This document shows positions 35,695 through 49,080 of a stretch of 60,098 nt of DNA, piece by piece (the stretch's first letter is position 1; every line of letters starts with the position of its first letter). A program made the translations under genes and the position numbers. The DNA comes from Spirochaetaceae bacterium (GTDB taxonomy: Bacteria; Spirochaetota; Spirochaetia; DSM-27196; SLAA01): assembly GCA_003552985.1 (NCBI GenBank), contig PUPD01000227.1, positions 1 to 60,098 of the forward strand, in the 5' to 3' direction. The notes below the pieces were generated by a model. The model saw only the letters and a program-made list of their open reading frames with translations, was not told the origin of the DNA and did no database searches.

Positions 35695-35835
35695 ATGGAG
35701 AATGCGCACAGCATAAGTGAGCGGCGTGGCAACGGACCTCGGGACGGCCGGCACCTCTTGTGTTTGATCAGCGTTACCAGTATTCTGCCGGTGATATGGC
35801 CATTTCTGTGTTCCTCTCGCGACGGGTCTAGATGA
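35695..35835 (+). CDS. Putative 46-aa small protein/leader peptide coupled to ROK(2)
   Basis: AGGAGG SD; MENAHSISERRGNGPRDGRHLLCLISVTSILPVIWPFLCSSRDGSR; stop overlaps the ROK(2) start (ATGATG). Confidence 0.35.
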   Translation: MENAHSISERRGNGPRDGRHLLCLISVTSILPVIWPFLCSSRDGSR

Positions 35836-36983
35836 TGTCGAAAACGATTAGCGTCAATACGGTGAAGATTCAGAACCGCCTTGCCGTGTTTCGCGAGTTA
35901 CGTAACTTCGGCGAGACTACGCGCACGCAACTGGCTCGGCGCTGCAATCTCAGCCTCGGTACGGTCGTAACAATCCTTGAGGAGCTCGCCGGGCAGGGCG
36001 TGGTGGAGGAGACGCTTGATCAGCGAGCTACCGTCGGGCGCAAGCCCCACCTCGTACGGCTCGTAGACGGAGGCAAGCGCATTATCGCGATCGATCTATC
36101 CTCGCGAAACTCACTGTATGAGATCTTTCCCGTGCATTTGCAGGGGGGCGTTGGCGCGAAGCATCGGTTCCGGAGCGCTCAATCGCTGGAGGCCAACGTC
36201 CGCGCCCTGTTTGAAGAGGTTCGCCGGCATGTGGAAGACCTGAGAATCAAGGACGAGGACATCATCGGGATCGGCGTATCTGTTCCGGGGTCGTATCGCT
36301 ACACTTCAGACAGCATCGAAAACGCGCCGTTCCCGGAGCTCCACCAGATTGGCCTGAATCGATTGCTCAAGGAGTACTTCGACCAACCGGTGACCATAGA
36401 CCACGACGTGTTTCTTGCCGCCCACGCCGAAATTCGGTACATCTCCGCATACCATGACAAGAACATCTTTTACATGTTCCTCGGTGAGGGTGTTGGCGGT
36501 GCACTCTCGGCACATGGCGAGCTCTATCGCGGATCACGTGAGGACGCGGGTGATATCGGGCGAATGTACATCACCGCCGACGAAACGCTCGAGGATCTCG
36601 TCTCCTGGAACCGCGTCGAGGCTGCCCTAGCGGTCGAGGGCACTACGCCGCTGGAAGCACAGAGCCCTGACGGTAGCAAGGGCTCAGCTGCGACCGAAGG
36701 CCCGCCGCGTGACCTCCCTGCTCCGGTGCAGGAAGCAACGCGCGTGATCGCACGTGCGCTCCAGAACACATTCTGGGTTGTCGATCCCGACTGCTTCGTA
36801 GTAGGCGGTGAGTATCAGCGTTTCGGCACCCCATTCGTCGAGTTGATCACCCGCGAGCTCCAACGATACCTTGAGCCCTCGGTGATGGAAACGCTCGAGG
36901 TGAGGCTCTCCCAACATGGCGCACGAGGAGCACTCCTTGGGGCGGCACAGATCGCGCGCCGCCAGTGGCTCGTTTCTCTGTGA
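35832..36983 (+). CDS. ROK-family transcriptional regulator (2), tandem paralog
   Basis: Same architecture as 34491..35663 with shared blocks (SVNTVKIQNRLAVFREL, HDVFLAA.AE, LPAP.QEATR). Confidence 0.9.
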   Translation: MMSKTISVNTVKIQNRLAVFRELRNFGETTRTQLARRCNLSLGTVVTILEELAGQGVVEETLDQRATVGRKPHLVRLVDGGKRIIAIDLSSRNSLYEIFPVHLQGGVGAKHRFRSAQSLEANVRALFEEVRRHVEDLRIKDEDIIGIGVSVPGSYRYTSDSIENAPFPELHQIGLNRLLKEYFDQPVTIDHDVFLAAHAEIRYISAYHDKNIFYMFLGEGVGGALSAHGELYRGSREDAGDIGRMYITADETLEDLVSWNRVEAALAVEGTTPLEAQSPDGSKGSAATEGPPRDLPAPVQEATRVIARALQNTFWVVDPDCFVVGGEYQRFGTPFVELITRELQRYLEPSVMETLEVRLSQHGARGALLGAAQIARRQWLVSL

Positions 36984-37075: not shown

Positions 37076-38395
37076 TCATGTGATCGCCAGGCCCTGCACC
37101 AACGCGATCAGATTATCACGCAGCGTTTCGCCCGCCCCAGGTGCAAGTGCGGTGGCCTCCACCTCGAACCCTCCCTCTTCATAAGCCGCTGCGTTGGGAA
37201 GATAACCGACATGACCGTTTGCAAGCCCCATCAAGACGGTTGATACCCCTTTCGTGGCGTCAATGACCTCGCGGCCTAAAGCGTTGAACAGCTCTCCGGG
37301 GATCGTGACCATAACCGTGTCGTTGATCCGCAATGCGGCAATCTCGGCCTCGATAGAGTGCCCGCACCCTTTACGTCGTAAATGGCGCAGCAGCAGAACG
37401 GAATGATCCATCTCGCACTGCAGTAGTCCTTCAGCTCGCTCAGCTCGAGCCGCCCGGCTTTCCTGGTTAAGGTGCTCAAGCAGTTCCGCCTCTTGTGCGA
37501 GACTCGGACGCTGACGAAGCGGAAGAGACACCAGGGCGCGCTTCTGCCGCAGGATCTGCACGTCTTCCGGTTGCAACCGTTCAACCGCTTCAATCACTAC
37601 GCTCCCTAAGCGCCGCCCAAGGCGTTCGGCATCCTCACGGGTGCCGGGATGGATAATCGGATTGCTGTCACCTTCGGCCCCGTTGGTGAACATGACGGTC
37701 GTATCAGCACCAAGAGCGCGCTCCGCGAAGCGTTGCATTGCACCCGGATAGTCAGAGGAGATCTCGATATTCGGCCCGAGCACTACCGCGTGGCAGGCGT
37801 AGTTTACTACGATTGCGCGTTCGCCCATGGAGTTCTCGAACCCCAACACGGCGACCGTCCGATCTACCGGTGCTTCCCAGTTCTGTCCGAGATACGGCAA
37901 CGGTTTGAACCGTCCTTCCGCGTCACGCTGCCTTCGAACAACATTAATATCAGATTGGGTGCGTGCAAAGCCGAAACGAGCCGGGCAGGCGCGGCGCTGC
38001 GCCAGTTCCACCGCGCTCGCGAGCTTGCGCATCAAAACAGTACGGTATTCGAAATCAAGCACGCCGGCGAAAAGATTATGTCCTTCAGGTAAGGTGTCGA
38101 TCATCGGTCCGGAGTGGTTATGGGAGGCCGTTAGAATGATCGATTCAGCCGGAATCCCGGTACGCTTCGATACGGTCGTTACGGCTTCGGCGAAGAAGGA
38201 GTCGGGCATTCCAATGAGATCGGTTGTCACCAGAACTACCGGACCGTCGTCGTGTTCGAGCACCAGAGCCTTGGCGTGTAACTCATCGAAGACCTCAGAG
38301 GCCCCTGCGGTACGCCCTTCACTGACGTAGTACCCCGCGAGAGCGACTCCAAGCGGCGGTGTGATGTTGACAGTTGCCCAGCCTGCTGAGAACAA
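37076..38395 (-). CDS. Neutral/alkaline ceramidase-like hydrolase (1)
   Basis: NITPPLG..LAGY, ASHNHSGP, NYACHA, ISSDYPG, NGAEGD, PGELF, GYLP. Confidence 0.8.
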   Translation of the reverse strand: MFSAGWATVNITPPLGVALAGYYVSEGRTAGASEVFDELHAKALVLEHDDGPVVLVTTDLIGMPDSFFAEAVTTVSKRTGIPAESIILTASHNHSGPMIDTLPEGHNLFAGVLDFEYRTVLMRKLASAVELAQRRACPARFGFARTQSDINVVRRQRDAEGRFKPLPYLGQNWEAPVDRTVAVLGFENSMGERAIVVNYACHAVVLGPNIEISSDYPGAMQRFAERALGADTTVMFTNGAEGDSNPIIHPGTREDAERLGRRLGSVVIEAVERLQPEDVQILRQKRALVSLPLRQRPSLAQEAELLEHLNQESRAARAERAEGLLQCEMDHSVLLLRHLRRKGCGHSIEAEIAALRINDTVMVTIPGELFNALGREVIDATKGVSTVLMGLANGHVGYLPNAAAYEEGGFEVEATALAPGAGETLRDNLIALVQGLAIT

Positions 38396-38407
38396 ACTGC
38401 TTCCCCG

Positions 38408-39280
38408 TCATCCCTTCGTAGCGCCTGCGGTCATACCGGCGATAAGGTGGTGCTGCAAAGAAAGGAAGAAGATTACCGCCGGCAGCGTCAGAATCACGCC
38501 TCCTGCCAGAAGCCCCCCGTAGTTTGTACCCGCAAACTGTGAGTGAGCGAGGTTGTTTAACACAACGGCCGCCGGGACGACGCTTGCGCTTCTCGCAAGA
38601 ATCATCGCAAACAACAGGTCGTTCCACGCCAGCACGAACGCAAATAGCCCGGTCGCGATAATACCCGGCACGATCAACGGCAAAACGATTCGGAAGAACG
38701 CCTGCAACCGGCTCGCTCCGTCAATCCAGGCCGATTCCTCCAGCTCTACCGGGAAGCCTGCGAAAAAACCCCTCAGCATCAGAATCGCGAAAGGCGCTGC
38801 GAAGGTCGCGTATCCCAGCACTAACCCTAGGTACGTATCTACCAGACGCAGCCGCGTGAAGATCACAAACAGAGGAATCGCAACCAGGACCCGCGGCAGC
38901 ATCTGCGTCGAGACGAAGAAGGTCATAATCGATTTCTTGAACCGATAGCGGTACCGCGCCAGACTGTAGGCCGCCGCTGCACAGATCGTCATCGCCAGCA
39001 ACGCAGTAGCTCCGGCCACAACAAACGAGTTCAATAACCCCCGCATGAAGCGCGCATTGGTGAATGCCCAGTAGTAGTGCTGCAATGTCACGGGATTCGG
39101 GAGCAAGGTCGGGACGCGCGAGAAGATCGCATCTGCTGTTTTCAGGGAGGAAATGAGGCCCCATAGAAACGGGAACGCGATCCACGCCAACAGGATGACC
39201 GTTACGAGGTCGCGTGCTCGGCGGAATACGAATGAGCCTTCGATTTGCCTACCGGGACGACTTCGGCGACGGCGCATCAT
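38408..39280 (-). CDS. Carbohydrate ABC transporter permease (MalG-like)
   Basis: PVELEESAWIDGASRL, AWNDLLFA, GMTAGATKG. Confidence 0.93.
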   Translation of the reverse strand: MMRRRRSRPGRQIEGSFVFRRARDLVTVILLAWIAFPFLWGLISSLKTADAIFSRVPTLLPNPVTLQHYYWAFTNARFMRGLLNSFVVAGATALLAMTICAAAAYSLARYRYRFKKSIMTFFVSTQMLPRVLVAIPLFVIFTRLRLVDTYLGLVLGYATFAAPFAILMLRGFFAGFPVELEESAWIDGASRLQAFFRIVLPLIVPGIIATGLFAFVLAWNDLLFAMILARSASVVPAAVVLNNLAHSQFAGTNYGGLLAGGVILTLPAVIFFLSLQHHLIAGMTAGATKG

Positions 39281-39300
39281 GGTTCCACACCCTCCCTGAC

Positions 39301-40251
39301 TCAGATATCAAGCCTGATTCGGCGCATGTAGACGCCGGTAAACACCAGCATGAAGGCCATCAACAGCACACCGATGCTCGCACCGTACGCAACTCGGTAA
39401 AACTCGAACCCAACTCGGTACGACAGAATGGCCAGAGTTGTGGATTGTCCGCCCGGCCCACCTCGGGTCAACGCCCACAACAGGTTGAAATCGTGGCTGC
39501 GCCAGATAGTCATCAGCAAGGTCACAACCACCAGCACCGGCCGCAACAGCGGAAGCGTGATCATCCTAAATCGGTGCCACAGCGACGCTCCGTCGACTAT
39601 AGCCGCTTCGTAGAGCTCCTCCGGGATCATCTGCAGCCCGGCCAGTAGATTGACGAATGAAAACGGGATGCTTTTCCACCAGCTTATAACCAATATGCTG
39701 ATCCACATGGTACTGCGATTGGTAAGCCACGAGATCCTGCTCTGAATAATCCCCAAGTTCATAAGAACGTAGTTGAGAATCCCCCATTCGCCGTCGAGGA
39801 TCCACCGCCACACGATCGCTACCACGACTGGGGGCATCAGCCACGGTAGGATTACGATTCCCCGCCAAACGGGACGAAACGGGATTCGCCGGTTCAAGAG
39901 CAAAGCGAGCAACAGTCCGAGCCCCACCTCACCAACCACCGAGCCGAAGGTCCAGATCACCGTATTGCGGACGTAGAGCGTCCACCGCGGATCGGCGAAA
40001 AACCGCCGGAAGTTCCCGAACCCATACGGCTCAATTGAGTCGATCCCGCGCATGAGATAGAGGTCCTGAAAGCTCAGCCACACGGCGTGCAAAATCGGAT
40101 AGATGATGAAGACGGCAAAAAACGTGAACGCCGGAAGGAGTAACGCGATACCTACTACCGCTTGCGAACGGCTTGCCCTCGTCAGCAACTTACGCAGCCG
40201 ACCGCTGTTTTGATTATGGTCTCTGTCCATGCTCGTTGTCGGGCCTGTCAT
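39301..40251 (-). CDS. Carbohydrate ABC transporter permease (MalF-like)
   Basis: GFGNF, LPWLMP, LQMIPEELYEAAIVDGAS, LTRGGPG. Confidence 0.93.
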   Translation of the reverse strand: MTGPTTSMDRDHNQNSGRLRKLLTRASRSQAVVGIALLLPAFTFFAVFIIYPILHAVWLSFQDLYLMRGIDSIEPYGFGNFRRFFADPRWTLYVRNTVIWTFGSVVGEVGLGLLLALLLNRRIPFRPVWRGIVILPWLMPPVVVAIVWRWILDGEWGILNYVLMNLGIIQSRISWLTNRSTMWISILVISWWKSIPFSFVNLLAGLQMIPEELYEAAIVDGASLWHRFRMITLPLLRPVLVVVTLLMTIWRSHDFNLLWALTRGGPGGQSTTLAILSYRVGFEFYRVAYGASIGVLLMAFMLVFTGVYMRRIRLDI

Positions 40252-40422
40252 CGCTTAAACCGTTTTAGTTGCGCAAAGCAGTTCTCTTATCAACGCCGCC
40301 AACGGAACGCTGTCGGTATCGCAACCTACAGGGCAGTTGCTTAGAAACCGGCGCAGGACAGCGACCTGCCGTCCCGCGTCCGATTCCGGTAACCGTAGTT
40401 AAGCTTAGGCGTTATGACAGCG

Positions 40423-41748
40423 TCACCCTCGTATGGCCTCGACTCGCTCCTTGAGCTGATCGTACGCCTCTTCCGGACCGATACGTCCGCCGAGAAGATC
40501 ACCGATGACCTCGGCTTTGACGGAGTCGATCTCGCTCGTTGGTGAGTACGGCGGGATGGAGAGAAGATCAACATCACCGCCGCCGGCGAACAGTGCACCC
40601 CACTCTTCTTCCCACCAGCGAACCTGGTCACCCAGGGCGGCCACGCGGTCGTCTATCGTCACACCCTTGTGTGGAGAAACGTTCATAGCCCATTCGACCG
40701 CTACGTCTCGGTCAGCCATAAACTCAATGAACCGGCCCGCCGCTTCCTTGTTCTGAGCGGCTCGCAGAATGGAGTAGCCGACCGTGTATGCCGACGCGTG
40801 CGGATTCCCACCGGGGACGGCGGTCGGAACCGGCATGATGGCGGTAACATCCGGCTGTGCCATTTGCGGGGCCAACCCGGCGAGGTCTCCCTGGAAGTAC
40901 GAGCCCTGCAACGCAACTGCTACAACACCTTCTGTGTAGGAGATGATGCTGTCGCGATGCGTCCAGCCTTCCTGCGCCGGCGGCATGTATTCCGCAAGCT
41001 CCTGCATCTGCGTCAACATCTCGATGTAGTTGTCGCGCATTTCGTCGCGGAAATCGACCGCATTCCTCAGACCGAACGCGGGGGCATAGTAATGGTGCAG
41101 CGCCGCCCCCACCATACGATCCTCGGCCAGCGTAATCGTGGTGGCGTACCGTCCGCGTTCCGGATCGTATACTGCGGCGGCCGCCTCCATGAACTGGTCC
41201 CAGGTGCGGATCTCTTCGGGTGGGTACCCTACCTCTTCGAACCAGTCTCGTCTGACGATGAATGCGCGGGAGGCCTGAGTAAACGGAGCTCCGTATAGTT
41301 GGCCGTCCTGCACGATCTCGTTGGACTCATCAACGATGTGGTCCAGGTACTGGTCGAGCAAGTCCTGAGACACCCAGTCGTTGATCGGCTCGAGAATTCC
41401 CATCTCCATCCAGTCGTTGATCTGAGCGTGCCCGTACCATACAACGTCCGGCGGGTTTCCGGCGCCAAGGTCGGCATAGAGGCGGTCGAAGATGTCAGCC
41501 CAGGTGGTGAGCTGGTAGTCGACATATATCTCGTCCTGCATCTCGTTGAACTCACGCACCCATTTCTGATCGTGTGCCTGTTCAACCTCCGCACTACCGG
41601 AGCTCAAGTAGACGATTGTTACCGTTTCGTCTTCCTCAGCAGCCCCACGTGCAACAGCAAACCCGACAACCCCAACAGCTAAGACCACGGTTATCGCCAG
41701 CATAACCGGCGTACGCCACCCTAGAACCCACTGCTTCCCCAAAGGCAT
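40423..41748 (-). CDS. Sugar ABC transporter substrate-binding protein
   Basis: Signal peptide ending AVARGAAEE, AGNPPDV, DGQLYGAP, RRDWF, TWDQFMEAA; acidic; AGGAGGTG SD. Confidence 0.9.
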   Translation of the reverse strand: MPLGKQWVLGWRTPVMLAITVVLAVGVVGFAVARGAAEEDETVTIVYLSSGSAEVEQAHDQKWVREFNEMQDEIYVDYQLTTWADIFDRLYADLGAGNPPDVVWYGHAQINDWMEMGILEPINDWVSQDLLDQYLDHIVDESNEIVQDGQLYGAPFTQASRAFIVRRDWFEEVGYPPEEIRTWDQFMEAAAAVYDPERGRYATTITLAEDRMVGAALHHYYAPAFGLRNAVDFRDEMRDNYIEMLTQMQELAEYMPPAQEGWTHRDSIISYTEGVVAVALQGSYFQGDLAGLAPQMAQPDVTAIMPVPTAVPGGNPHASAYTVGYSILRAAQNKEAAGRFIEFMADRDVAVEWAMNVSPHKGVTIDDRVAALGDQVRWWEEEWGALFAGGGDVDLLSIPPYSPTSEIDSVKAEVIGDLLGGRIGPEEAYDQLKERVEAIRG

Positions 41749-41795
41749 AAGACACCTCCTTGAGTGATATCGGCTGCAATGCAGCCCAACAACTT

Positions 41796-41824
41796 ACCTT
41801 AAGCTGCTTCCTATTTTCTGTCAA
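41796..41824 (-). promoter_or_regulatory. sigma70-type promoter for the second ABC operon
   Basis: TTGACA-17 nt-TAAGGT with an A/T-rich UP-like tract upstream. Confidence 0.6.
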
Positions 41825-41881
41825 TGATTGATTTAATTATTTTTTTTGATAGTGGTTTTTCGAGCTGCTCCGTATCACCGG

Positions 41882-42913
41882 CTATCCATCCCTTGGTGCC
41901 CCTGGCGCCACAGACACCACCCCACCGGTGCGGGACGACTCATAGGCAGCCTCAAGAATGCGCATGTTGACGATCCCCTCGTCCGGACCGGGAGTTGGAG
42001 CCCGGTTCTCGCGAATGGCGGAGACGAACTCGGCCATCTGGGCGGTGTACATGTGTTGGTCGCAATGCCCGAGGCGCGGTGGGAACTCCGGCGTTATCAC
42101 TATCTGCCCCTCAGGACCATGCCTTTTGACCAGGGTGGGGTATAACGAAGCGTAGCCCCCGGCGCCGTACAGACAAGTAGCCGCCTCGGGTCCGTCCATG
42201 TGCGGCTGCCACCAGCCGCTCTCGACCACCGAGGCGACACCGCCGGCCCATTCCACCACCACTATTCCGGTGTCGTCGAGCTCGGTCTTTCCCATGTTCG
42301 AGCTGATGCGAGCATACACCTGAACCGGCTGCGGATCGCCTAGCAGAAAGCGGGTAGTATCGATAGCGTGGATCCCCATATCCGCCAGCGCTCCACCACA
42401 GGCGAGCGAAGGGTCGGTGAACCAGCCGCCTGGTCCCCAGTTAACGTGTATTCCGTAAGCAGTCGTCCGAAAGATCTGTCCGATCTCGCCCTCGGCAACT
42501 CTCCGCCTGAGATCCAGCACCTCACGATCGAAGCGCCACATGTGCCCGACCATGAGCACACGCCCTCCCCGCTCGGCGGCCCCGGCGAGCTCCTCCGCCT
42601 CGGCGGTTGTGCAGGTCATCGGCTTCTCAACGAATACATGCTTCTCGGCCTCCAAAGCCTGTAGTGCATACGGATGATGATACACGTTCGGGACCGAAAG
42701 AATGACCGCATCCAGCGACCGGTCGCTCAGCAGCTCTTCGGCAGTGCGGTACGTTTTGGGAATGCTATGTCGCTCAGCAAACCGCTTGCCCTTCTCCAAC
42801 CCCCGGTTCTGCGCAGCCGCCAACTCCACTCCGGGCTGCTCAGCCAGCCCCACGGCGTGAAACTCGGCTATAAAGCCGGTTCCGACAAATCCAACACGCA
42901 GCCCTTCGGTCAT
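41882..42913 (-). CDS. Gfo/Idh/MocA-family oxidoreductase
   Basis: VGTGFIA Rossmann motif, HVFVEKPM, GGALADMGIHAID. Confidence 0.92.
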   Translation of the reverse strand: MTEGLRVGFVGTGFIAEFHAVGLAEQPGVELAAAQNRGLEKGKRFAERHSIPKTYRTAEELLSDRSLDAVILSVPNVYHHPYALQALEAEKHVFVEKPMTCTTAEAEELAGAAERGGRVLMVGHMWRFDREVLDLRRRVAEGEIGQIFRTTAYGIHVNWGPGGWFTDPSLACGGALADMGIHAIDTTRFLLGDPQPVQVYARISSNMGKTELDDTGIVVVEWAGGVASVVESGWWQPHMDGPEAATCLYGAGGYASLYPTLVKRHGPEGQIVITPEFPPRLGHCDQHMYTAQMAEFVSAIRENRAPTPGPDEGIVNMRILEAAYESSRTGGVVSVAPGAPRDG

Positions 42914-44187
42914 CCTCGTTCTCTTTGCCGGAGCTCTTTCTTGTTGTCGATCACCTTACGCACCGCCTCGGCGATCTGCTCCATATCCTCGGATGATCCC
43001 ATCAGAACCCGGTGTGTCAGCGCTACCGATGTGTGGTGAAACGCCTGCTGCGATTCCGGCAGCTCAAAGCGGGCAGGATTGAGTGCATCCCAGTACTCGT
43101 CGTTCAATCGATGCCGCTTCTTGGTCTGCGGGCGATAGAGCATACAATCGTTTAACGGCTGATAGCATGCATTCACGCCGATACCGAGCTCGGCGCTCAA
43201 CGCCTGGCGAAACAAACTCACCGAAATGCCGAGCTCCTTTTCGTCGATACGGAACGCGTAATTGAAGTAGCTTTTCTTCGTCTCACGCGGGTCGTCCTTC
43301 ATTGGGTGACAGCCGGGAACCGCGCTGAGCAGTGAATCGAGGTAGCGACCGTTGGTCTCGCGCGTACGGTTCAACGACTCCAACCGAGTGAGCTGCCCGA
43401 GGAGGACCGCCGCCTGAAACTCGGTGATCCGGTAGTTGCCGCTTTGAATCAGGTCACCTTCTTCTCCGTAATCCCCCGAGCTCTTATCTGTTTCGGTATT
43501 CTCCGGGCGCCGCCCGCAATTGCGCAGAGCGTCCAACCGGTACCAGAGCTCGTAGTCATTGGTGGTAACCGCGCCGCCTTCGCCCGCCGTCATGATCTTG
43601 GAAAGCTGCATACTGAAGCTGCCGATGTCACCCAGCCCTCCGACCCTTATCCCGTTCCACTCCGCCCCGTGTTTGTGCGCGGCGTCCTCAATGACGTGTA
43701 GGCCGTGTCGTCGGGCAATCTCGACAATCGCATCCATATCGGCAATGTTGCCGTACAGATGCACCGGGATCACGGCTCGAGTACGCGAGGTTATCGCCGC
43801 CTCGAACGATTGCGGGCTCATGCACCACGTATCCGGCTCAACATCAACCAGCACCGGCACCGCGTTTACGTCCGCCACCGCGGCTGCAGTCGCCTGCCAA
43901 GTGATCCCCGGAACGATCACCTCATCACCGAAACCGATGTCGAGCGCCTCAAGCGCAAGCTGCATGCTGACCGTCCCGTTCGCCACCAGCAGCGCGTGCT
44001 TCACACCCAGGTACTCCTGGAAGCGTCTGAGAAACTCCTGCTCCTTAGGTCCGTTATACGACCAAACCCCGCTCTCCAGCACCTCAAGCAGCCCAGTTCG
44101 TTCTTCGTCGCCCCACATCGGCCAGGCGGGCCAGGGGCTGTTTTGGACATCGCGGACAGGCGTCCCTCCGTTGATTGCGAGCACCAT
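42910..44187 (-). CDS. DegT/DnrJ/EryC1/StrS PLP aminotransferase, inosose-aminotransferase (StsC/BtrR)-like
   Basis: Start ATG 44187 after GGAGG; IEDAAH, FSMQLSKIMTAGEGG (PLP Lys), NYRITEFQAAVL, ALSAELG..PLND..LYRP..KKR..NPARFELP. Confidence 0.85.
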   Translation of the reverse strand: MVLAINGGTPVRDVQNSPWPAWPMWGDEERTGLLEVLESGVWSYNGPKEQEFLRRFQEYLGVKHALLVANGTVSMQLALEALDIGFGDEVIVPGITWQATAAAVADVNAVPVLVDVEPDTWCMSPQSFEAAITSRTRAVIPVHLYGNIADMDAIVEIARRHGLHVIEDAAHKHGAEWNGIRVGGLGDIGSFSMQLSKIMTAGEGGAVTTNDYELWYRLDALRNCGRRPENTETDKSSGDYGEEGDLIQSGNYRITEFQAAVLLGQLTRLESLNRTRETNGRYLDSLLSAVPGCHPMKDDPRETKKSYFNYAFRIDEKELGISVSLFRQALSAELGIGVNACYQPLNDCMLYRPQTKKRHRLNDEYWDALNPARFELPESQQAFHHTSVALTHRVLMGSSEDMEQIAEAVRKVIDNKKELRQRERG

Positions 44188-44258
44188 ACTTCCCTCCACT
44201 CGATTCGTTCGTCTCGTCAAACCTCATCATACAAGCGCCTCTGAGGCGCAAGCTCGTC

Positions 44259-45266
44259 TTACCTCGTAAGCTCCCGGAACGCGCTCACGAGCTTTTCGGC
44301 ATCCGGCGCATGATAGTCTATCGCCGAATACCACAGGCGAGCGTCACGGACGAAATCGCCCAGCGTCTCCAACGCTTTACGGAACTCGTGGTGTTCAAGG
44401 CCTATCGCTTCCGGGCGGTATTCAACACCCGCCTGGTCCAGCGTCTGCTTGATGGTTTCGGGGGCGTTGTCCTGATGGAGCGACATCACGAGAATTCCGA
44501 GCGCAACAAGCTCGCCGTGAACGAAGTGTCTGCGGGTGATTCGCTCGACGTTGTAGGCGAAGAAATGCTCAGACCCTTCTTCCATCCGCGCCGAACCCCA
44601 GCTCAACGTCAGATCATTGATCGCGCAGAAGCCCTCGATCATCGCGCGAATTCCGACCGGACTCACCTCCCGGATTTCGCCTGCTTGCGCGCTGCAGCAC
44701 TCCATCACTTCCTTCGCGATTCTGCTCACGCGCTCATCACGCACGTCCTGTTCCTGCTCCTCGGCCAGGCGCCAGTCGAACTGTGCGGTGTGGCAGCTCA
44801 AGACGTCGGAGATACCAGCACGGTTGAGCCGCGCCGGCGCGGCCCGCACGATCGGGTCAGAGACGATCACCTCCTTGGGCGCACAGCTACCGATATACTT
44901 CACGATGCTATGCGTCCGCACCGCGATCGCCGGTGTGACCATTGCGTCCACCGACGCGATCGTGGGAATCGCGGTCACGGGAAGCTCGTACGCCCATCCG
45001 AGGTACTTCGCGGCGTCAATCGAAGAGCCGCCGCCGATACCGACGATGCGCCGGGTTCCCGGCGGCAGGCTGAGCGCTCTCAGATACCCGATTCCCATCT
45101 CGCTGATATAGTGAAGCTGCAGGGGCGTTACTCTGATCACGCCCTGGACGAGCTCCCACGGCTCTTCCATCGTGCAAACCACGGCGCTGGGCCACTCGAT
45201 GTGAGCTACATCGTCCTCGAGATTCTCACTGTACCGCACTGACTCTGCCGTTGTTCCGATCATCAC
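44259..45266 (-). CDS. Metal-dependent dehydrogenase, glycerol-1-phosphate dehydrogenase (EgsA/AraM)-like
   Basis: GIGGGSSIDAAK, PTIASVDA, AGISDVLS, GSEH, HGELVALG. Confidence 0.75.
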   Translation of the reverse strand: MMIGTTAESVRYSENLEDDVAHIEWPSAVVCTMEEPWELVQGVIRVTPLQLHYISEMGIGYLRALSLPPGTRRIVGIGGGSSIDAAKYLGWAYELPVTAIPTIASVDAMVTPAIAVRTHSIVKYIGSCAPKEVIVSDPIVRAAPARLNRAGISDVLSCHTAQFDWRLAEEQEQDVRDERVSRIAKEVMECCSAQAGEIREVSPVGIRAMIEGFCAINDLTLSWGSARMEEGSEHFFAYNVERITRRHFVHGELVALGILVMSLHQDNAPETIKQTLDQAGVEYRPEAIGLEHHEFRKALETLGDFVRDARLWYSAIDYHAPDAEKLVSAFRELTR

Positions 45267-45284
45267 CGTCCTCTCTTGCGATCA

Positions 45285-45313
45285 ATTATACCTTACCAAC
45301 CGATTTCTGTCAC
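45285..45313 (-). promoter_or_regulatory. sigma70-type internal promoter for dehydrogenase-aminotransferase-oxidoreductase
   Basis: GTGACA-17 nt-TATAAT with AT-rich upstream DNA. Confidence 0.7.
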
Positions 45314-45375
45314 GACTTAATTTAATATCTAGATTATACTCGCCGCTCGTCTACTCCGGATTGCCGGCTCCGCGC

Positions 45376-46644
45376 CTACTCATTAGCAACACCGCACCAC
45401 CGTGCCGCGGCGACGGCCAAAACTTTGGCACAGGTTACGACCTGCTCGAACTCTACATATTCGTCCGTGCTGTGGATCATTCCACCTTTCGGCCCGAACA
45501 CCATCGCCGGCGTATCGCCGTACAGGACCGGCAACCTCAGATCGCACCCTCCCCCGCCCACGGTTCTCAGATCCCTGCCGGTAAGCTCCCGACTCACGCC
45601 TCTCATTGTGGTTACAAACGGATGGCCCGGGTCGATCTCGGCAGCCTCGAACCACAGCCCGAACCATTCCACTGTGGGCGGGTTGTGTTTCAGCCATGGA
45701 TCCTTGGAGGACCACTCCATCAGAAACCGCTTAAACCCCTCTTTCACGACGTGAATATCCTCGCCCGGCAGGCACTCGATGGTGCCCTCCATGACGCACC
45801 GGGACGGGACCGTGGAAGGCCACTCACCACCCCTGATGGTGCAGATCCCGAGCGGAGCCTTGGTGACGCCGTACTCGTCGTAAAGCGGGTGACGAGCTAC
45901 GGACTCGCGCATGATCGAATACTCCTCGATCGCCCGAAAAACCTCCATCGCTTTTCCGATAGGGTTCACCAGCTCATGCTTGTACTCCGTTCCGCCCTCC
46001 TGCCCCGGGACAGTGATGCGAAAATACTGAGCTCCGCGACTCGACACCGCCGCCTTGTCCAGGCCGGTCGGCTCGGTGAAGTTACACGCATCGGCACGGT
46101 AGCCCCTGATAACACAAGCCAGCGTCCCGTTTCCGCCGCTCTCCTCATCGACCACGCTCTCCAGTATCAGATCGCCGCGCAGCCTCACCCCGGCTCGCAT
46201 TAGCGCCTTGAGTGCACTGATATTGGCGACGCATCCGCCTTTCATGTCGGCGGCTCCGCGTCCGTATACTCGCCCGTCAACGAACTCCGCACCCCACGGA
46301 TCGAAGCTCCAGGCGGTTTGAGTCCCGGTCGGCACTACGTCGACATGCCCGTTGAGGATCAACGACCGTCCCCCGCCGGTTCCACGGGAAACCGCCACTA
46401 CGTTCGGCCTGTTCCGATAGTCGAGCTCCACCGGCACGTACGCTGGGTGTGCCCGAAGCTCTTCATCCGGAGGGTCCCAGACGTCGAGATCCAGATCCAT
46501 GCTTCGCAGCTCACGTTCCACAATCGCCTGTACGTCCGCCTCGTCGGGGTGCAGAGACGGCGTGCGAACTAGTTCCTGCAGGAGCGCCAGCATTTCGTCC
46601 CGTTGCGCTTCGACTGCCGCCAGCACGCGTAACTGCCATTCCAT
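45376..46644 (-). CDS. M20 ArgE/DapE-family deacylase
   Basis: Start reset to ATG 46644; LNGHVDVVP, GRGAADMKGG, DEESGG, TEPT, HSTDE. Confidence 0.9.
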   Translation of the reverse strand: MEWQLRVLAAVEAQRDEMLALLQELVRTPSLHPDEADVQAIVERELRSMDLDLDVWDPPDEELRAHPAYVPVELDYRNRPNVVAVSRGTGGGRSLILNGHVDVVPTGTQTAWSFDPWGAEFVDGRVYGRGAADMKGGCVANISALKALMRAGVRLRGDLILESVVDEESGGNGTLACVIRGYRADACNFTEPTGLDKAAVSSRGAQYFRITVPGQEGGTEYKHELVNPIGKAMEVFRAIEEYSIMRESVARHPLYDEYGVTKAPLGICTIRGGEWPSTVPSRCVMEGTIECLPGEDIHVVKEGFKRFLMEWSSKDPWLKHNPPTVEWFGLWFEAAEIDPGHPFVTTMRGVSRELTGRDLRTVGGGGCDLRLPVLYGDTPAMVFGPKGGMIHSTDEYVEFEQVVTCAKVLAVAAARWCGVANE

Positions 46645-46645
46645 C

Positions 46646-47452
46646 TCAGTTGTCCACTGCTGCATGCTCGAACCAGTCATCCAATGCCCCGAAGCGCAAC
46701 ACACGAAAGGGCTCGGCTGCCGTAACGCCGCAGAGACCGCCGCTTCGGTGTCCCTGTTCACGGATGATCCGAGCGATAACGGGTTCATAATCGCCTTGGT
46801 GGGCCTGCTCGATCTCAGGGACGCTTCGGCCCCAGGTCTTTGTCTGCAGCCACAACTGATGCACGATGTGCGTCATCATCAGTTGATGAGCACAGGCCGC
46901 ACGAATCTTGGTCTCAACGAGATCTGAAATGTCTTCGTAGCGGTTCACTTCAAGCAAGCGACGCGCGAAGTACCAGCGCTCGCAAACTGCGTGCGGTTCC
47001 AATCCCGACTCGAGGTGCTCGGGATGGTGTTTGTCGAACATTGCGGTCCAGAACGCCTCGTCTACCGCCTGCGCGATACGTACGTGGTCCTGATTGTTCT
47101 CATACAGGACTCCATACGGATCAAACGAGAATACCGCGTAGGGCCGGTGCTCGCGATAGAGCCGGATAAACCGCTCGCGAAGCTCGACCTCCGATACCTC
47201 GGCCAGGCAGTCCGAGGGGTAACCAAGCTCGACGATCTCGGAAACCCCGAGAATACGGGCCGCCTCGGCAAACTCAGCCGCGTTACGCTCGATCGTCTCT
47301 TCAACGCCCAGCGCCACCGAGTCCTTGTCGTCGATCGTCACTCTGACGACCACCACGTTCCACCCCTCGCGCGCACGCTTTGCGAGCGTGCCGCCGCAGA
47401 ATAACGCCGCATCGTCGGCGTGCGGCGCAATCATCATCAACGTTCTGCTCAT
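46646..47452 (-). CDS. PIG-L/LmbE-family de-N-acetylase (3), variant motifs
   Basis: APHADDA, E..EAARILGV, FDPY..YENNQDH (first His of HxDH absent). Confidence 0.8.
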   Translation of the reverse strand: MSRTLMMIAPHADDAALFCGGTLAKRAREGWNVVVVRVTIDDKDSVALGVEETIERNAAEFAEAARILGVSEIVELGYPSDCLAEVSEVELRERFIRLYREHRPYAVFSFDPYGVLYENNQDHVRIAQAVDEAFWTAMFDKHHPEHLESGLEPHAVCERWYFARRLLEVNRYEDISDLVETKIRAACAHQLMMTHIVHQLWLQTKTWGRSVPEIEQAHQGDYEPVIARIIREQGHRSGGLCGVTAAEPFRVLRFGALDDWFEHAAVDN

Positions 47453-47470
47453 AGACTCTTACACTCCTTC

Positions 47471-48958
47471 CTAAGCACGCAAAACCGGCGCACTGCAGAT
47501 CTCCTCAGCGGTATCAAGTAAAATCTCGGTTGCTTCCGGAGCCAGGTCGTTCGCTATGGTCTCGTACTTTCCCCACCAGTCGCGTTCCCCAAACTGCGTG
47601 GGGTGCGGCAGATACTGAAAATGACTGTTGGCATACCCGATCACGAATCCGAGGTCAGAGGAACAGCGACGCTGCCAATCTCGGCCCACGGCAACCAAGG
47701 GCTCGCCCGGCAATGCGACGAACCGGAACTCACCGAGTTGCATAACCTGAACCGGAACCAGGTGCTTCTGTGCCGCATCGCGCTCGCAACGCGAGCGTAT
47801 CAAACGGTACCGACAGACTGCAGCCATGAGCCGGCACATCTCCGATTCGGGTAACCTTCGCCTGATTACGACCTCCGAAGCTCGCGCCCAGAGCGCGGTA
47901 CTCTCCAGGTGGGCATCTGCGGTCGTCACACCGGTCTCCGCACCGAGGAACTCCATGATGACCGTCGCCTCGTGCGTCAGCTGCTCCTGGAGCTCATCCG
48001 CAGACCAGCCACTTCGGCTCGCGTCGCCGGAATGCGCACGCGCCCGCAGTGCGGCCCCGGAGCCCAAATAGGCGTCGGCGATCCGGCACTCTCGCTGGAC
48101 GCACCGAGGCTGCGAATCAGTTACCGGAGAGGCGTCCGCGATGACCCGGATAACCTCTGCGGCCAGCCGGCCTCCAAGATCGGCCGCTTCGTCATGCAGA
48201 ACGTCGGCATACCCACGCGGGTCGAGCGCATCGGCGTTTGGGCGACTCCGCGGTATTACGTCCCCGGAAGCTACGTTGACAAACAAGGCGACCGTTCCCG
48301 GGAATGCCCGCTCCACTGCCGACTGAGCGTGACCCGGGTAGTCGGCGCTGATCGCCATGTTGCGCCATCCGAGCGTCACGGGATGGCAGGCGCATCCGAA
48401 TACCACCGCGACCGGCAGGGACGAATGCCGTTCCACAATCTGAAGAACCGGGATTCGGTGATCCACGTCGTTCGGCCTTCCGCGGGTCCGGCGGTTACGC
48501 ATAAGCTCCGCTTTTCCAACACCGGCATGTAGCCGAGCCGGGCGCGCGGTTTGCACAGCCTTCAGTCCGGTCCGGACCACCGCCTCCGTCAGCCCGTTCA
48601 AGTACCGGCGATGCCGCTCATCGCGCGGCCTGAGGTCCGGTCCTGAATGAGTATGCGACGCTGCGATGCAGATCGCCTCACTGGAAACCGCAGCTTGGCT
48701 TGCGAGCCTCTGCTTAATCGCGCGAGCCAACGAGCCGGGTACATGGATAAGATCAAGGCCGATCAATAACAGGCTGCCGCGGGGGCCTCCGAGATACACC
48801 GCTTTTGCGCTGAGGGGATCAAGCACACCGCTGCTCGGCGAGGTCCGCTGTCCGAAACCACCCATGTATAACTCTTCTCGCGGAGTGATGTCCGTCCAAG
48901 CGCTCCCGGCAACGAGCTCTGCCCGACCCGCCATGCTCGCCATACTATAGATCCCCAC
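47471..48958 (-). CDS. Neutral/alkaline ceramidase-like hydrolase (2) with a long central insertion
   Basis: DITP..MGGF..R, ASHTHSGP, ACHPV, ISADYPG, LPGEP, GYAN..YLP; start codon uncertain. Confidence 0.75.
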   Translation of the reverse strand: MGIYSMASMAGRAELVAGSAWTDITPREELYMGGFGQRTSPSSGVLDPLSAKAVYLGGPRGSLLLIGLDLIHVPGSLARAIKQRLASQAAVSSEAICIAASHTHSGPDLRPRDERHRRYLNGLTEAVVRTGLKAVQTARPARLHAGVGKAELMRNRRTRGRPNDVDHRIPVLQIVERHSSLPVAVVFGCACHPVTLGWRNMAISADYPGHAQSAVERAFPGTVALFVNVASGDVIPRSRPNADALDPRGYADVLHDEAADLGGRLAAEVIRVIADASPVTDSQPRCVQRECRIADAYLGSGAALRARAHSGDASRSGWSADELQEQLTHEATVIMEFLGAETGVTTADAHLESTALWARASEVVIRRRLPESEMCRLMAAVCRYRLIRSRCERDAAQKHLVPVQVMQLGEFRFVALPGEPLVAVGRDWQRRCSSDLGFVIGYANSHFQYLPHPTQFGERDWWGKYETIANDLAPEATEILLDTAEEICSAPVLRA

Positions 48959-49000
48959 TCATATATAAACTACATATTGCGTTAATTATTATATGAATGT

Positions 49001-49029
49001 ACTATTAAATAGAAACCGGATTCTGTCAA
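49001..49029 (-). promoter_or_regulatory. sigma70-type promoter for the hydrolase operon
   Basis: TTGACA-17 nt-AATAGT in a strongly AT-rich divergent intergenic region. Confidence 0.5.
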
Positions 49030-49080
49030 CCGGTTGGTGACGCACTATCGCCGGTTTTAGATATTTTAGACTTTGAAAGG

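Follow-up and report, generated by a model that had tools for sequence, protein, structure and literature searches.

The interconversion of C-OH, C=O and C-NH2 groups on sugars is the work of enzyme pairs such as NtdC/NtdA, RifL/RifK, GnnA/GnnB and WbpB/WbpE, in which a Gfo/Idh/MocA oxidoreductase is coupled to an aminotransferase of the DegT superfamily. Aminotransferases of 2-deoxy-scyllo-inosose and scyllo-inosose (BtrR, RbmB, KanB and StsC) frequently have a Gfo/Idh/MocA dehydrogenase and a PIG-L deacetylase as partners. The rhizopine (scyllo-inosamine) moc and iol pathways handle a cyclic polyol or amine with an importer and a Gfo/Idh/MocA dehydrogenase. The chitin pathway of the Thermococcales comprises the diacetylchitobiose deacetylase Dac, the exo-beta-glucosaminidase GlmA and the glucosamine-6-phosphate deaminase GlmD. 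Here we describe a block of ten genes in a 60,098-nucleotide stretch of DNA (hereafter the window) from a Spirochaetaceae bacterium, which has elements in common with each of these systems. Our searches of the literature found no described pathway of such composition, in agreement with the preliminary description of this DNA. We tentatively propose, at a probability a little short of even, that the block encodes a cytoplasmic pathway for the salvage or catabolism of glucosamine-type, N-acylated amino sugars that are imported as monomers or short oligomers.

Layout of the block and its importer

Positions 37076-48958 of the window are filled exactly by ten co-oriented minus-strand open reading frames, and Pfam and NCBIfam confirm for their products the families listed in the preliminary description. 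From the upstream end these are the ceramidase-like Cer1 (47471-48958), a PIG-L deacetylase (46646-47452), an M20 deacylase (45376-46788), a G1PDH-like dehydrogenase (44259-45266), a PLP aminotransferase of StsC/BtrR/RbmB type (42910-44220), a Gfo/Idh/MocA oxidoreductase (41882-42913), a CUT1-type ABC substrate-binding protein (40423-41748), two ABC permeases (39301-40251 and 38408-39280) and a second ceramidase-like protein, Cer2 (37076-38395). The M20 protein probably starts near residue 45, since its listed frame shares 143 nt with the PIG-L gene. Upstream of Cer1 lies an AT-rich intergenic region (48959-49080), divergent to a PPi-phosphofructokinase gene, with a minus-strand promoter-like site (TTGACA-17-AATAGT, 49029-49001) from a scan whose site counts did not exceed shuffled expectation.

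The substrate-binding protein (SBP_bac_1, 106.4 bits) has an N-terminal membrane or signal segment and no close solved relative, the best being Lin1841 (E 2e-13); the permeases (BPD_transp_1, 65 and 58.1 bits) give weak NCBIfam matches of UgpA/MalF and GlcU/MalG type, and the block includes no ATPase gene. None of the ten products matched a glycosyltransferase, exporter or resistance family in Pfam or NCBIfam, again as first described. On inspection of their N-termini the enzymes have no evident signal peptide and so would act on an imported solute.

Gaps of 109 nt before the G1PDH-like gene, 133 nt before the substrate-binding protein gene and 171 nt before the first permease gene, two of them with promoter-like sites, raise the question of whether this is one pathway at all, or two or three adjacent transcription units with unrelated substrates (Cer1/PIG-L/M20, G1PDH/aminotransferase/GFO and SBP/permeases/Cer2). 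The transporters adjoining related aminotransferases in other genomes (loci that we label L or G) are not orthologous, and G1278 has the G1PDH/aminotransferase/GFO three-gene core with no amidase within the 20 kb examined, as such a division would predict. Against it, the promoter-like counts do not exceed those of shuffled sequence, and amidases and aminotransferase recur together in many lineages, their frames sometimes overlapping (aminotransferase and ceramidase-like frames by 4 nt in L094 and L100; in L010 they abut). Furthermore, the genome's only two PF04734 matches (Cer1 and Cer2), the PIG-L homologues that tblastn detected in it and its sole aminotransferase of StsC-like type are all concentrated in one 17-kb stretch here. 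We therefore consider separate units very unlikely.

The aminotransferase and its dehydrogenases

The aminotransferase frame encodes 436 aa (425 aa, starting at M12, in its database form) and matches DegT_DnrJ_EryC1 (PF01041) with 326.1 bits. Against the 2-deoxy-scyllo-inosose aminotransferases of PDB entries 5w70, 5w71 and 2c7t its scores are 331, 293 and 292 bits, compared with 213 bits for AHBA synthase, at most 187 for NDP-sugar enzymes and 100 for NtdA. In a tree with NDP-sugar types as outgroup it joins, in a clade with 98% support, an aminotransferase of the Sodalis plasmid pHS1 that adjoins a 2-DOI synthase, a PIG-L gene and a glycosyltransferase. Scores and tree thus uphold the earlier assignment to the StsC/BtrR type rather than to NDP-sugar DegT enzymes, and every motif quoted in its favour is literally present (WPAWP at 30, FSMQLSK at 202, ALSAELG at 340 and, towards the C-terminus, PLND at 355, KKR at 367 and RFELP at 384). 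The clade of the block enzyme forms an orthologue group of its own, with identities of 48-89% and members in many phyla; homologues at ~60% identity number in the thousands and come from Flavobacteriaceae, Acidobacteriota, Ignavibacteria and Spirochaetia, with 11 matches in one Acidobacteriota genome, and the closest named homologue, from Salinispira pacifica (62% identity), is in keeping with a spirochete host.

Aminotransferase and Gfo/Idh/MocA dehydrogenase form a conserved module, because the stop of the one overlaps the start of the other as ATGA, coupling their translation, and orthologous pairs recur in other loci: in L004, L061, L068, G1278, G1368 and G1343 the gene after the aminotransferase is an orthologue of this dehydrogenase (42-52% identity). 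The dehydrogenase matches GFO_IDH_MocA (98.8 bits) together with its C-terminal domains. IolG (TIGR04380) is its top NCBIfam model at 149 bits, far below the cut-off of 355, and its top PDB matches are an aldose-aldose oxidoreductase (113 bits) and 1,5-anhydro-D-fructose reductase (112.6 bits). On the other side of the aminotransferase, the NAD(P) dehydrogenase of G1PDH/glycerol-dehydrogenase type (335 aa; Fe-ADH_2, 39.8 bits) reaches 127 bits with its best NCBIfam model, G1PDH NF002022, under a cut-off of 413, and matches a G1PDH (5fb3, E 6e-25) and a glycerol dehydrogenase (3ce9, E 3e-24) in the PDB. Genes like it directly precede the aminotransferase in G1278 (58% identity), L062 (35%) and L073 (33%).

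One use of such a pair would be to aminate an imported sugar or cyclitol for the cell's own needs, a salvage-and-modify pathway leading to a cell-envelope sugar, compatible solute or signal, as with NtdC/NtdA, RifL/RifK or StrI/StsC. We know of no characterised dehydrogenase and aminotransferase pair of the NtdC/NtdA kind that is not anabolic; the glutamine-dependent relatives of the aminotransferase favour amination, and a UDPGP-family nucleotidyltransferase gene (54253-55860) lies 5 kb from the block. However, it is not obvious what the importer and the four deacylases would contribute to the synthesis of an amine, the block is without a glycosyltransferase, acyltransferase or exporter, and glycoside hydrolase, sulfatase and sugar-regulator genes abound in related loci. 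This makes amination the least probable of the accounts weighed here, and a highly improbable one.

The preliminary description had proposed uptake and catabolism of an aminocyclitol (an inosamine, 2-deoxystreptamine or N-acetylated aminoglycoside fragment) by biosynthesis-type enzymes run in reverse, so that the compound would be deacylated, transaminated to an inosose and finally reduced or oxidised. The aminotransferase's scores against 2-deoxy-scyllo-inosose aminotransferases, its place beside the pHS1 enzyme and the rank of IolG among NCBIfam models all speak for such a substrate; a diamino-cyclitol would go well with two dehydrogenases and an aminotransferase of possibly dual function, and the xylose-isomerase-like TIM barrel encoded between two aminotransferase genes in G1167 has the fold of IolE and IolI. 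Yet no known route would be left for the ring carbon, because neither IolD nor IolE was found above cut-offs in the genome (91.5% complete), and the IolG match itself falls well short of its threshold. Annotated orthologue loci contain no inosose-forming or inositol-specific gene, although glucosaminidase, GH84 and chitobiose-deacetylase-like genes are present, and the wide spread of homologues would be hard to square with such scarce compounds as aminoglycosides or rhizopines. Of the original proposal, a catabolic or salvage role is plausible, given the importer, four amidases, ROK neighbours and lack of a glycosyltransferase; the aminocyclitol is not supported by these results, nor by the PIG-L protein's likeness to diacetylchitobiose deacetylases, and we hold it to be unlikely.

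The amidases and the proposed class of substrate

Cer1 (495 aa) matches the N-terminal ceramidase domain PF04734 with 51.6 bits (Pfam cut-off 32.1) and appears from its sequence to be a short, cytoplasmic metallo-amidase of neutral-ceramidase type. Its AlphaFold model (pLDDT 89.5, pTM 0.90) has the catalytic-domain fold of neutral (non-lysosomal) ceramidases, with Foldseek matches to 2zws, 2zxc and 4wgk (E 5e-27 to 1e-24, TMq 0.63-0.67) and nothing better than E 6e-4 outside them. In the family alignment H102, R156, H192, D206, E419 and E466 are invariant and H104, Y449 and Y465 nearly so, conserving the His/His/Arg/His/Glu/Tyr set of ceramidases, which we take to map to the zinc site of the Pseudomonas enzyme. 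Cer2 (439 aa; 27-30% identical to Cer1) keeps the invariant residues in its row of the alignment (A2), although its 31.6 bits fall slightly below the PF04734 cut-off. Unlike solved neutral ceramidase chains, of 630-690 aa and 15-18% identity, the Cer proteins show neither a C-terminal domain by Pfam nor an evident signal peptide. Their bacterial family is very large, counting 10344 representative clusters at E<=1e-3, and its fusion partners include a CE4 deacetylase and a gluconolactonase, with an N-acylglucosamine 2-epimerase as an Atlas lead.

The PIG-L/LmbE-family N-deacetylase (268 aa; PF02585, 82.9 bits) fell under every NCBIfam cut-off for BshB1, BshB2, Mca and MshB, and its best solved relatives are archaeal diacetylchitobiose deacetylases (3wl4, 3we7 and 8bgn; E 4e-18 to 1e-13). 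The M20 protein (Peptidase_M20, 108.4 bits; M20_dimer, 35.7 bits) passes the 217.6-bit cut-off of the DapE-ArgE subfamily TIGR01910 with 266 bits, and its top PDB match is a putative acetylornithine deacetylase (3pfo, 204 bits).

The grouping of amidases with the aminotransferase is more than chance: among fetched loci, which are not phylogenetically independent, short ceramidase-like genes occur in 12 of the 55 with a full-length StsC-like aminotransferase and in none of the 44 with an NDP-sugar type, and PIG-L genes and ROK genes each in 4/55 against 0/44. In L061 and L068 the gene immediately upstream encodes an exo-beta-D-glucosaminidase of CsxA type, which scores 447 bits with 2vzs and 115 bits with beta-mannosidase, and the upstream frame of L004 has an Ig_GlcNase domain only. 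L069 (the same locus as G1361) combines a GH84 N-acetylglucosaminidase with PIG-L, ROK and GlmU-like genes, G1368 has PIG-L and ROK genes near the aminotransferase, and heparinase II/III-like genes stand beside ceramidase-like and aminotransferase pairs in L135 and L010. Of 17 related loci whose aminotransferase shows 46% identity or more, many of them on contigs under 5 kb, only four carry a hexosaminidase-type gene. The flanks of the block itself hold two more PIG-L genes, two of the N-acylglucosamine-2-epimerase family, a signal-less sulfamidase-like sulfatase whose C-terminal domain is of N-sulphoglucosamine-sulphohydrolase type, a glucokinase and a SIS protein that resembles the GlmS isomerase and NagB-II. 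Convergent with the block on the plus strand are two tandem ROK-family regulators (34491-36983; ROK and N-terminal HTH by Pfam), 54% identical to each other and weakly matching NagC and Mlc, which probably regulate it; ROK genes also adjoin related aminotransferases in L068, L069 and G1368.

Other neighbours point elsewhere. L061 and L068 also carry GDPD genes, G1278 a GSA-aminomutase-like class III aminotransferase and L062 a GH30, from the family that includes glucosylceramidases, together with a ceramidase-like gene; amino-acid (APC) permeases occur in L062 and L067, and gamma-glutamyltransferase-like genes beside the aminotransferases of L177, L152 and L093. The substrate might then be some other N-acylated amine with a 2-amino-1,3-diol or aminopolyol motif (a serinol-like or sphingoid-like head group, a hexosaminitol or a gamma-glutamylated amine), freed by the ceramidase-like enzymes and passed as a ketone to the G1PDH/glycerol-dehydrogenase-like enzyme. 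The conserved ceramidase fold and catalytic residues would accord with this, as would the G1PDH-like gene's standing as the aminotransferase's closest partner in its nearest relatives. Weighing the other way are the sugar-type CUT1 importer, the apparently soluble and cytoplasmic nature of all the enzymes, the ring ketones that are the known substrates of the aminotransferase clade and the higher frequency of hexosamine-related neighbours; such an amine is, in our view, decidedly unlikely.

We favour N-acyl hexosamines because ceramidase-like and PIG-L amidases are tied to StsC-like and not to NDP-sugar-type loci, because of the PIG-L protein's solved relatives and the flanking hexosamine-type genes, because orthologue loci carry glucosaminidase, GH84, PIG-L, ROK and heparinase-like genes, and because solved relatives of the Gfo/Idh/MocA protein act on sugars, 1,5-anhydrofructose reductase reducing a 2-keto sugar. 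From the observed gene content, order and coupling, the family and fold assignments, the aminotransferase clade and the recurrence of the gene set, we infer a direction of reaction, a substrate and a role for each dehydrogenase and amidase. The compound would be taken up by the CUT1 system and its N-acyl groups removed by four amidases of three folds, exposing the ring amine. The aminotransferase would pass this amine to a keto-acid acceptor, leaving a keto-sugar (for glucosamine a 2-keto sugar, the oxa-analogue of scyllo-inosose), which the coupled Gfo/Idh/MocA and G1PDH-like dehydrogenases may reduce to a neutral sugar for glycolysis.

Several points count against the hexosamine proposal, which we accordingly rate just under the midpoint of likelihood. 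To our knowledge no homologue of the aminotransferase acts on free glucosamine, and its nearest characterised relatives aminate inososes with glutamine as donor, which makes the reverse unfavourable. No homologue of CsxA-type GH2, GH84, GH30 or GH4 was found in the block's own genome, and a second glucosamine route would be redundant, because NagA-like and NagB-like genes exist elsewhere in it. The GDPD, GH30, class III aminotransferase, gamma-glutamyltransferase-like and APC contexts, the share of loci with hexosaminidases and the top rank of IolG are reckoned on the same side. Two dehydrogenases and four amidases exceed the needs of a single N-acetyl hexosamine and would be better matched by a diamino sugar or one with several N-acyl groups.

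Comparison with described systems

The block has an importer and a Gfo/Idh/MocA dehydrogenase in common with the moc and iol pathways; it differs from the latter in a genome that yielded no IolD or IolE, and we know of no StsC-type aminotransferase, ceramidase-like, PIG-L or M20 gene among the moc genes. Pairs of the NtdC/NtdA, RifL/RifK, GnnA/GnnB and WbpB/WbpE type are anabolic, with phosphorylated or nucleotide-linked sugars as their substrates, whereas the context here is one of uptake and hydrolysis, with a second dehydrogenase of G1PDH/glycerol-dehydrogenase type. With BtrR, RbmB, KanB and StsC the block aminotransferase has the PF01041 fold in common and aligns over its full length, C-terminal extension included; unlike their settings, the block is without 2-DOI synthase, glycosyltransferase, resistance gene and exporter, and has in their place an importer, ROK regulators and extra amidases.

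The block resembles the chitin pathway of the Thermococcales in a PIG-L protein closest to Dac structures and in the adjoining SIS protein and glucokinase. An exo-beta-glucosaminidase is likewise found in orthologous loci, but of family GH2, and none was found in the block's own genome. Where the Thermococcales employ a kinase and a deaminase, deamination by the block would be a transamination of the unphosphorylated sugar followed by ketoreduction.

Composition and surroundings of the block

Ten minus-strand open reading frames (ORFs) tile positions 37076-48958, and every family that the preliminary description had named among them was recovered with Pfam and NCBIfam models. Two proteins carry the N-terminal Ceramidase_alk domain (Cer1, 47471-48958, and Cer2, 37076-38395; one at 51.6 bits, the other at 31.6 bits against a cut-off of 32.1), and between them lie a PIG-L deacetylase (PF02585, 82.9 bits against a cut-off of 28.2), an M20 deacylase of the ArgE/DapE subfamily, a dehydrogenase resembling sn-glycerol-1-phosphate dehydrogenase (G1PDH) and glycerol dehydrogenase, a DegT-superfamily aminotransferase (PF01041, 326 bits), a Gfo/Idh/MocA oxidoreductase, and a CUT1-type substrate-binding protein (SBP) with two permeases. 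By inspection the SBP has a signal-like N-terminus and none of the block enzymes does. The ArgE/DapE subfamily model was the only curated NCBIfam cut-off reached by any block protein, and the module belongs to no curated equivalog family tested.

Cer1 and PIG-L are separated by 18 nt, the G1PDH-like and aminotransferase genes by 38 nt, the two permeases by 20 nt, and the second permease and Cer2 by 12 nt, while the aminotransferase and Gfo/Idh/MocA ORFs share the 4 nt ATGA; longer gaps precede the G1PDH-like (109 nt), SBP (133 nt) and first permease (171 nt) genes. A TTGACAGAA/GTGACAGAA box beside AT-rich sequence is common to the gaps ahead of the Cer1, G1PDH-like and SBP genes (49001-49029, 45285-45313 and about 41810-41830, respectively). 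These three boxed sites may be three promoters, with promoter-like counts that do not exceed shuffled expectation; no ROK operator common to the intergenic regions was found, the TTGACAGAA-type -35-like box being the only shared element.

The flanks of the block are hexosamine-flavoured, with two more PIG-L genes, arranged divergently at 32447-34382, and two NagC/Mlc-like ROK regulators; the three PIG-L homologues detected in the genome by tblastn all fall within the window. On the minus strand lie a second CUT1 ABC importer (SBP 27017-28432, permeases 24941-26757), two adjoining N-acylglucosamine-2-epimerase-family genes (22286-24849) and a DUF3604/CehA-McbA-like metallohydrolase (20795-22051), and this importer and epimerase set (20795-28432) may be part of the same amino-sugar island. 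The plus strand at 28753-32397 encodes a 738-aa DUF4954/DUF6819 protein followed by a signal-less sulfatase with an N-sulphoglucosamine-sulphohydrolase C-terminal domain and a CSPSR motif; the genome holds a 59% identical paralogue of this sulfatase on contig C59 and several more on contig C82. Beyond a 122-nt AT-rich spacer, and divergent from the block, a plus-strand set (49081-55860) begins with a PPi-dependent phosphofructokinase scoring over the NF010675 cut-off. Next comes a SIS protein of GlmS-isomerase/NagB-II-like type, the ORF of which, as listed, overlaps the phosphofructokinase by about 200 nt; two ORFs that match no family, then a glucokinase and a UDPGP-family protein complete the set. 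Further away, two very long minus-strand ORFs of 1410 and 1169 aa occupy 9323-17103.

Relationships and neighbourhoods of the aminotransferase

All the motifs quoted for the aminotransferase in the preliminary description are present, at residues 30, 202, 340, 355, 367 and 384, and the PLP-lysine motif FSMQLSK spans residues 202-208. Its top PDB matches are three L-glutamine:2-deoxy-scyllo-inosose aminotransferases (5w70, 331 bits; 5w71, 293 bits; 2c7t, 292 bits), followed by AHBA synthase at 213 bits and NDP-sugar aminotransferases at no more than 187 bits, and the alignment with 5w70 covers residues 14-425, including the C-terminal extension. In a quick IQ-TREE analysis of 55 sequences the protein falls in a 17-row orthologue clade (100% support) nested in a 21-row clade (98%), with NDP-sugar-type enzymes as the outgroup (99%). 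The larger clade includes an aminotransferase encoded on plasmid pHS1 of Sodalis praecaptivus, where it adjoins a 2-deoxy-scyllo-inosose (2-DOI) synthase, a PIG-L protein and a glycosyltransferase, and another from a Streptomyces biosynthetic cluster. Tree and PDB scores together therefore place the enzyme with the 2-DOI/inosose aminotransferases and not with the NDP-sugar types, as had been expected from its motifs, the tree's biosynthetic references being only these two, both assigned by gene context. The gene setting differs: family searches of the ten products and the flanks show neither an inosose-forming enzyme (2-DOI synthase or true inositol dehydrogenase) nor a glycosyltransferase.

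Members of this family are numerous: 7575 of 8000 scored candidates reach E<=1e-20, and the best 120 homologues from that search, 58-100% identical, include named members from Flavobacteriaceae, Ignavibacteria, Chlorobi, Acidobacteriota and Salinispira (S. pacifica, 62%). Across species-representative genomes the distribution of orthologues is patchy. Eight of 401 Spirochaetia genomes carry one, the window's own counted; among 401 Acidobacteriota genomes the single match at E<=1e-110 is the search's centre genome itself. For the Vicingus metagenome-assembled genome G301, source of locus L016, none of 301 genomes of its class matched at E<=1e-120 and none of 87 of its order at E<=1e-100, and among 300 other genomes sampled across the phylum of the window none has an orthologue more than 45% identical. 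A related-locus search of genome contigs with the aminotransferase alone returned a single close orthologue, in locus L004.

The 112 loci fetched around related aminotransferases were divided by alignment to the window's protein into 55 StsC-like (full-length alignment) and 44 NDP-sugar-like (core only). Ceramidase-like neighbours, recognised by BLAST clustering, occur in 9 of the 55 StsC-like loci and PIG-L, ROK and CUT1 permease neighbours in 4 each, with none of these in the 44 NDP-sugar-like loci, while Gfo/Idh/MocA neighbours number 10 and 7, respectively; these figures are counts and not probabilities, since short contigs are frequent and the loci mutually related. When a profile derived from 41 ceramidase-like sequences is used instead, 13 such ORFs are recognised in 12 loci, every one of them StsC-like. 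In L094 and L100 the ceramidase-like ORF shares 4 nt with that of the aminotransferase, and in L010 the two abut. The association between amidase and aminotransferase is specific and recurrent. A further amidase type accompanies this family in L152, L093 and L177 (the last from genome G1343), where gamma-glutamyltransferase-family genes adjoin StsC-like aminotransferases. In the Halosolutus haloarchaeal plasmid locus L154, an StsC-like aminotransferase is accompanied by three Gfo/Idh/MocA genes, two that encode TIM barrels, genes for PIG-L, RidA and a class III aminotransferase, and sulfatase genes; the module therefore also occurs in archaea.

Closer relatives, with an aminotransferase sharing 46% identity or more with the window's, come from 17 other loci (L004, L061-L066, L068, L069, which is the same locus as G1361, L084, and contigs of genomes G1278, G1368, G1343 (two), G1167, G1121 and G1090). 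A Gfo/Idh/MocA gene follows or adjoins the aminotransferase in 7 of the 17, the L069 copy being only 24% identical to the window's, and a G1PDH-like gene precedes it in two, G1278 (58% identity) and L062 (35%); PIG-L occurs in two of the loci, ROK in three and a ceramidase-like gene in one. The closest complete genome, G1278, keeps the order of the window for its G1PDH-like (58%), aminotransferase (67%) and Gfo/Idh/MocA (52%) genes, beside an ABC importer. From this pattern it follows that the conserved core is one aminotransferase with one or two NAD(P) dehydrogenases, around which amidases and transporters vary. That the block is not one pathway, a reading to which so variable a periphery would lend itself and against which the recurrent amidase association stands, is quite improbable. 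The closest homologues of the G1PDH-like protein (P0300, 80%; P0302, 57%) and of the aminotransferase (P0002, 89%; P0003, 74%) share longest-contig figures pairwise, 7126 bases for P0300/P0002 and 10325 for P0302/P0003, and these shared figures, the sole ground for the statement, suggest that the two genes are neighbours in those sources too.

Amidases and dehydrogenases of the block

A structure model of Cer1 built from a 41-sequence alignment (pLDDT 89.5, pTM 0.90) found convincing Foldseek matches only among neutral ceramidases (E 5e-27 to 1e-24, TMq 0.63-0.67, identity 15-18%), with the neutral-ceramidase catalytic-domain fold present in the model (E 5e-27, TMq 0.67 against 2zws). Across the 41 sequences H102, H104, R156, H192, E419, Y449 and Y465 show either no variation or conservation of 90% or more, a pattern that may correspond to the zinc-binding and catalytic site of the Pseudomonas ceramidase. 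Unlike neutral ceramidases, Cer1 and Cer2 match only the N-terminal Pfam model and lack the C-terminal ceramidase domain, measure 439-495 aa as against 630-690 aa, and to the eye have no signal-like N-terminus for secretion. We read them as predicted soluble N-deacylases for small polar substrates, and not as ceramidases. They belong to a very large family, with 10344 representative clusters at E<=1e-3 and 4187 at E<=1e-10, and in ten long members the fusion partners include CE4 polysaccharide deacetylase, gluconolactonase, class A beta-lactamase-like, pectate-lyase-like beta-helix and SCP2 domains. A mostly spirochaetal 752-aa cluster in the ESM Atlas, with Ceramidase_alk present in 39% of its members and N-acylglucosamine 2-epimerase in 39%, offers a lead only, and a long-fusion search with Cer1 gave only Planctomycetes-type fusions (DUF7133, HEAT, cytochrome c), which are uninformative on substrate.

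The best solved relatives of the PIG-L protein are diacetylchitobiose deacetylases of Pyrococcus and Thermococcus (E 4e-18 to 1e-13), with BshB behind; as a thiol-biosynthesis equivalog it falls short of BshB1 (74.5 against a cut-off of 182.5), Mca (33.6 against 277) and MshB (22.3 against 224). The M20 protein passes the ArgE/DapE subfamily cut-off (TIGR01910, 266 against 217.6) and is neither a specific ArgE nor a specific DapE equivalog. Assignment of the G1PDH-like protein as a true G1PDH fails (NF002022, 127 against 413), and it is about equally related to solved G1PDH and glycerol dehydrogenase. The Gfo/Idh/MocA protein, at 149 bits against the TIGR04380 cut-off of 355, is not assignable as the IolG myo-inositol 2-dehydrogenase; among solved structures it is closest to aldose-aldose oxidoreductase and 1,5-anhydro-D-fructose reductase, with inositol dehydrogenases behind. 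1,5-Anhydro-D-fructose reductase reduces 2-keto sugars, glucosone among them.

Substrate, direction and comparison with known routes

The block had been read in the preliminary description as a pathway for the uptake and catabolism of aminocyclitols, and both the clade of the aminotransferase and the catabolic logic of that interpretation hold; the proposed substrate is not supported. No IolD or IolE scores over its cut-off anywhere in the 91.5%-complete genome (best 202 against 715 bits for IolD, 30 against 290 for IolE), the IolG score is as low as noted, and the neighbours are of hexosamine type. Hexosamine-type amino sugars are favoured over aminocyclitols because the PIG-L protein is closest to diacetylchitobiose deacetylases, because the flanks are hexosamine-flavoured, because hexosamine enzymes adjoin orthologues, and because of the missing IolD and IolE, the weak IolG score and the sugar-acting solved relatives. 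Among those orthologues, L061 and L068 have a CsxA-type exo-beta-D-glucosaminidase directly upstream (447 bits against 2vzs, 115 bits against beta-mannosidase), L004 has an ORF with only an Ig_GlcNase domain at the same position, and L069 carries a GH84 beta-N-acetylglucosaminidase, a GlmU-like gene, ROK and PIG-L; two more distant loci with ceramidase-like and aminotransferase pairs have heparinase II/III-like genes. Pyranose beta-D-glucosamine can be viewed as an oxa-analogue of scyllo-inosamine, so that activity on glucosamine would be a small step for an enzyme of this clade. Aminocyclitol catabolism, for which the 2-DOI affinity of the aminotransferase speaks and these neighbours do not, is unlikely.

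Other observations weigh against hexosamines. The window's genome has no homologues of CsxA-type GH2, GH84, GH30 or GH4 enzymes (no PF18368 match; tblastn), its only GH2 matches by tblastn being 21-23% identical, and NagA-like and NagB-like genes are already present on other contigs. Only 4 of the 17 related loci have a hexosaminidase-type gene. Contexts pointing elsewhere are the glycerophosphodiester-phosphodiesterase (GDPD) genes of L061 and L068, the pairing of GH30 and APC permease genes in L062, the three loci with gamma-glutamyltransferase-like genes, the gene for a xylose-isomerase-like TIM barrel that separates two aminotransferase genes in G1167, and a class III aminotransferase by the G1278 core. 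The last is GSA-aminomutase-like (251 bits, against 105 bits as an aminoglycoside C-6' aminotransferase), and so lends no support to an aminoglycoside reading. The GDPD-family genes lie inside or just after the aminotransferase-Gfo/Idh/MocA pair (L061 5194-6018, L068 13777-14616) and are not explained by the hexosamine model. Some other N-acyl aminopolyol as the substrate, with which the GH30, APC permease and gamma-glutamyltransferase-like contexts would agree and the glucosaminidase-bearing loci would not, is distinctly unlikely. Four amidases and two dehydrogenases exceed the needs of N-acetylglucosamine alone, and a better fit would be a sugar with two amino groups or several N-acyl groups, or else a set of related substrates.

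The best explanation, held tentatively and at a little under even confidence, is deacylation of N-acyl hexosamines followed by transaminative deamination. Mechanistically, the module would be the dehydrogenase and aminotransferase pair of amino-sugar and aminocyclitol biosynthesis, probably run in reverse and fed by amidases and an importer. The characterised relatives of the aminotransferase take glutamine as donor, which favours amination, and the direction proposed is therefore read from context only. An anabolic direction would suit that donor; against it stand the four deacylases, the importer and the lack, in family searches of the ten products, of any glycosyltransferase, and we consider it very improbable.

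The claim that no pathway of this composition has been described agrees with the literature search, which covered openly accessible articles and found none. On scyllo-inosamine catabolism it returned only rhizopine-related work, and nothing relevant on aminoglycoside or 2-deoxystreptamine degradation, on glucosamine transamination or glucosone, on an aminotransferase with exo-glucosaminidase and oxidoreductase, or on catabolic 2-DOI or DegT aminotransferases with chitosan; clusters of neutral ceramidase, aminotransferase and deacetylase for glucosamine were likewise not found. The accessible text of the rokL6 preprint calls Streptomyces glucosamine metabolism largely unknown, and that of a 2026 aminocyclitol review (PMC12904256) describes no such catabolic pathway. 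A broader proposal, possible but speculative, is that short cytoplasmic ceramidase-like N-deacylases, StsC-type aminotransferases and Gfo/Idh/MocA or G1PDH-like dehydrogenases form a widespread, undescribed, phosphorylation-free route from N-acyl amino sugar through free amine and keto-sugar to neutral sugar, with the nitrogen kept as amino acid, and that the aminoglycoside 2-deoxy-scyllo-inosose aminotransferases are an offshoot recruited from this catabolic radiation. If true, it would supply a function for the very large bacterial 'ceramidase-like' family of 10344 representative clusters and for many 'glutamine-scyllo-inositol/2-DOI aminotransferase' annotations in organisms without antibiotic production, and would hint at the origin of the aminoglycoside aminotransferases. 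Unprotected sugars might also be aminated or deaminated regiospecifically with the block enzymes as biocatalysts. In soils and sediments, amino sugars form one of the major reservoirs of organic carbon and nitrogen. To our knowledge, every textbook route for their use proceeds by way of phosphorylated hexosamines and enzymes of the NagA/NagB type; should the module transaminate free sugars, it would be a new entry point to amino-sugar catabolism.
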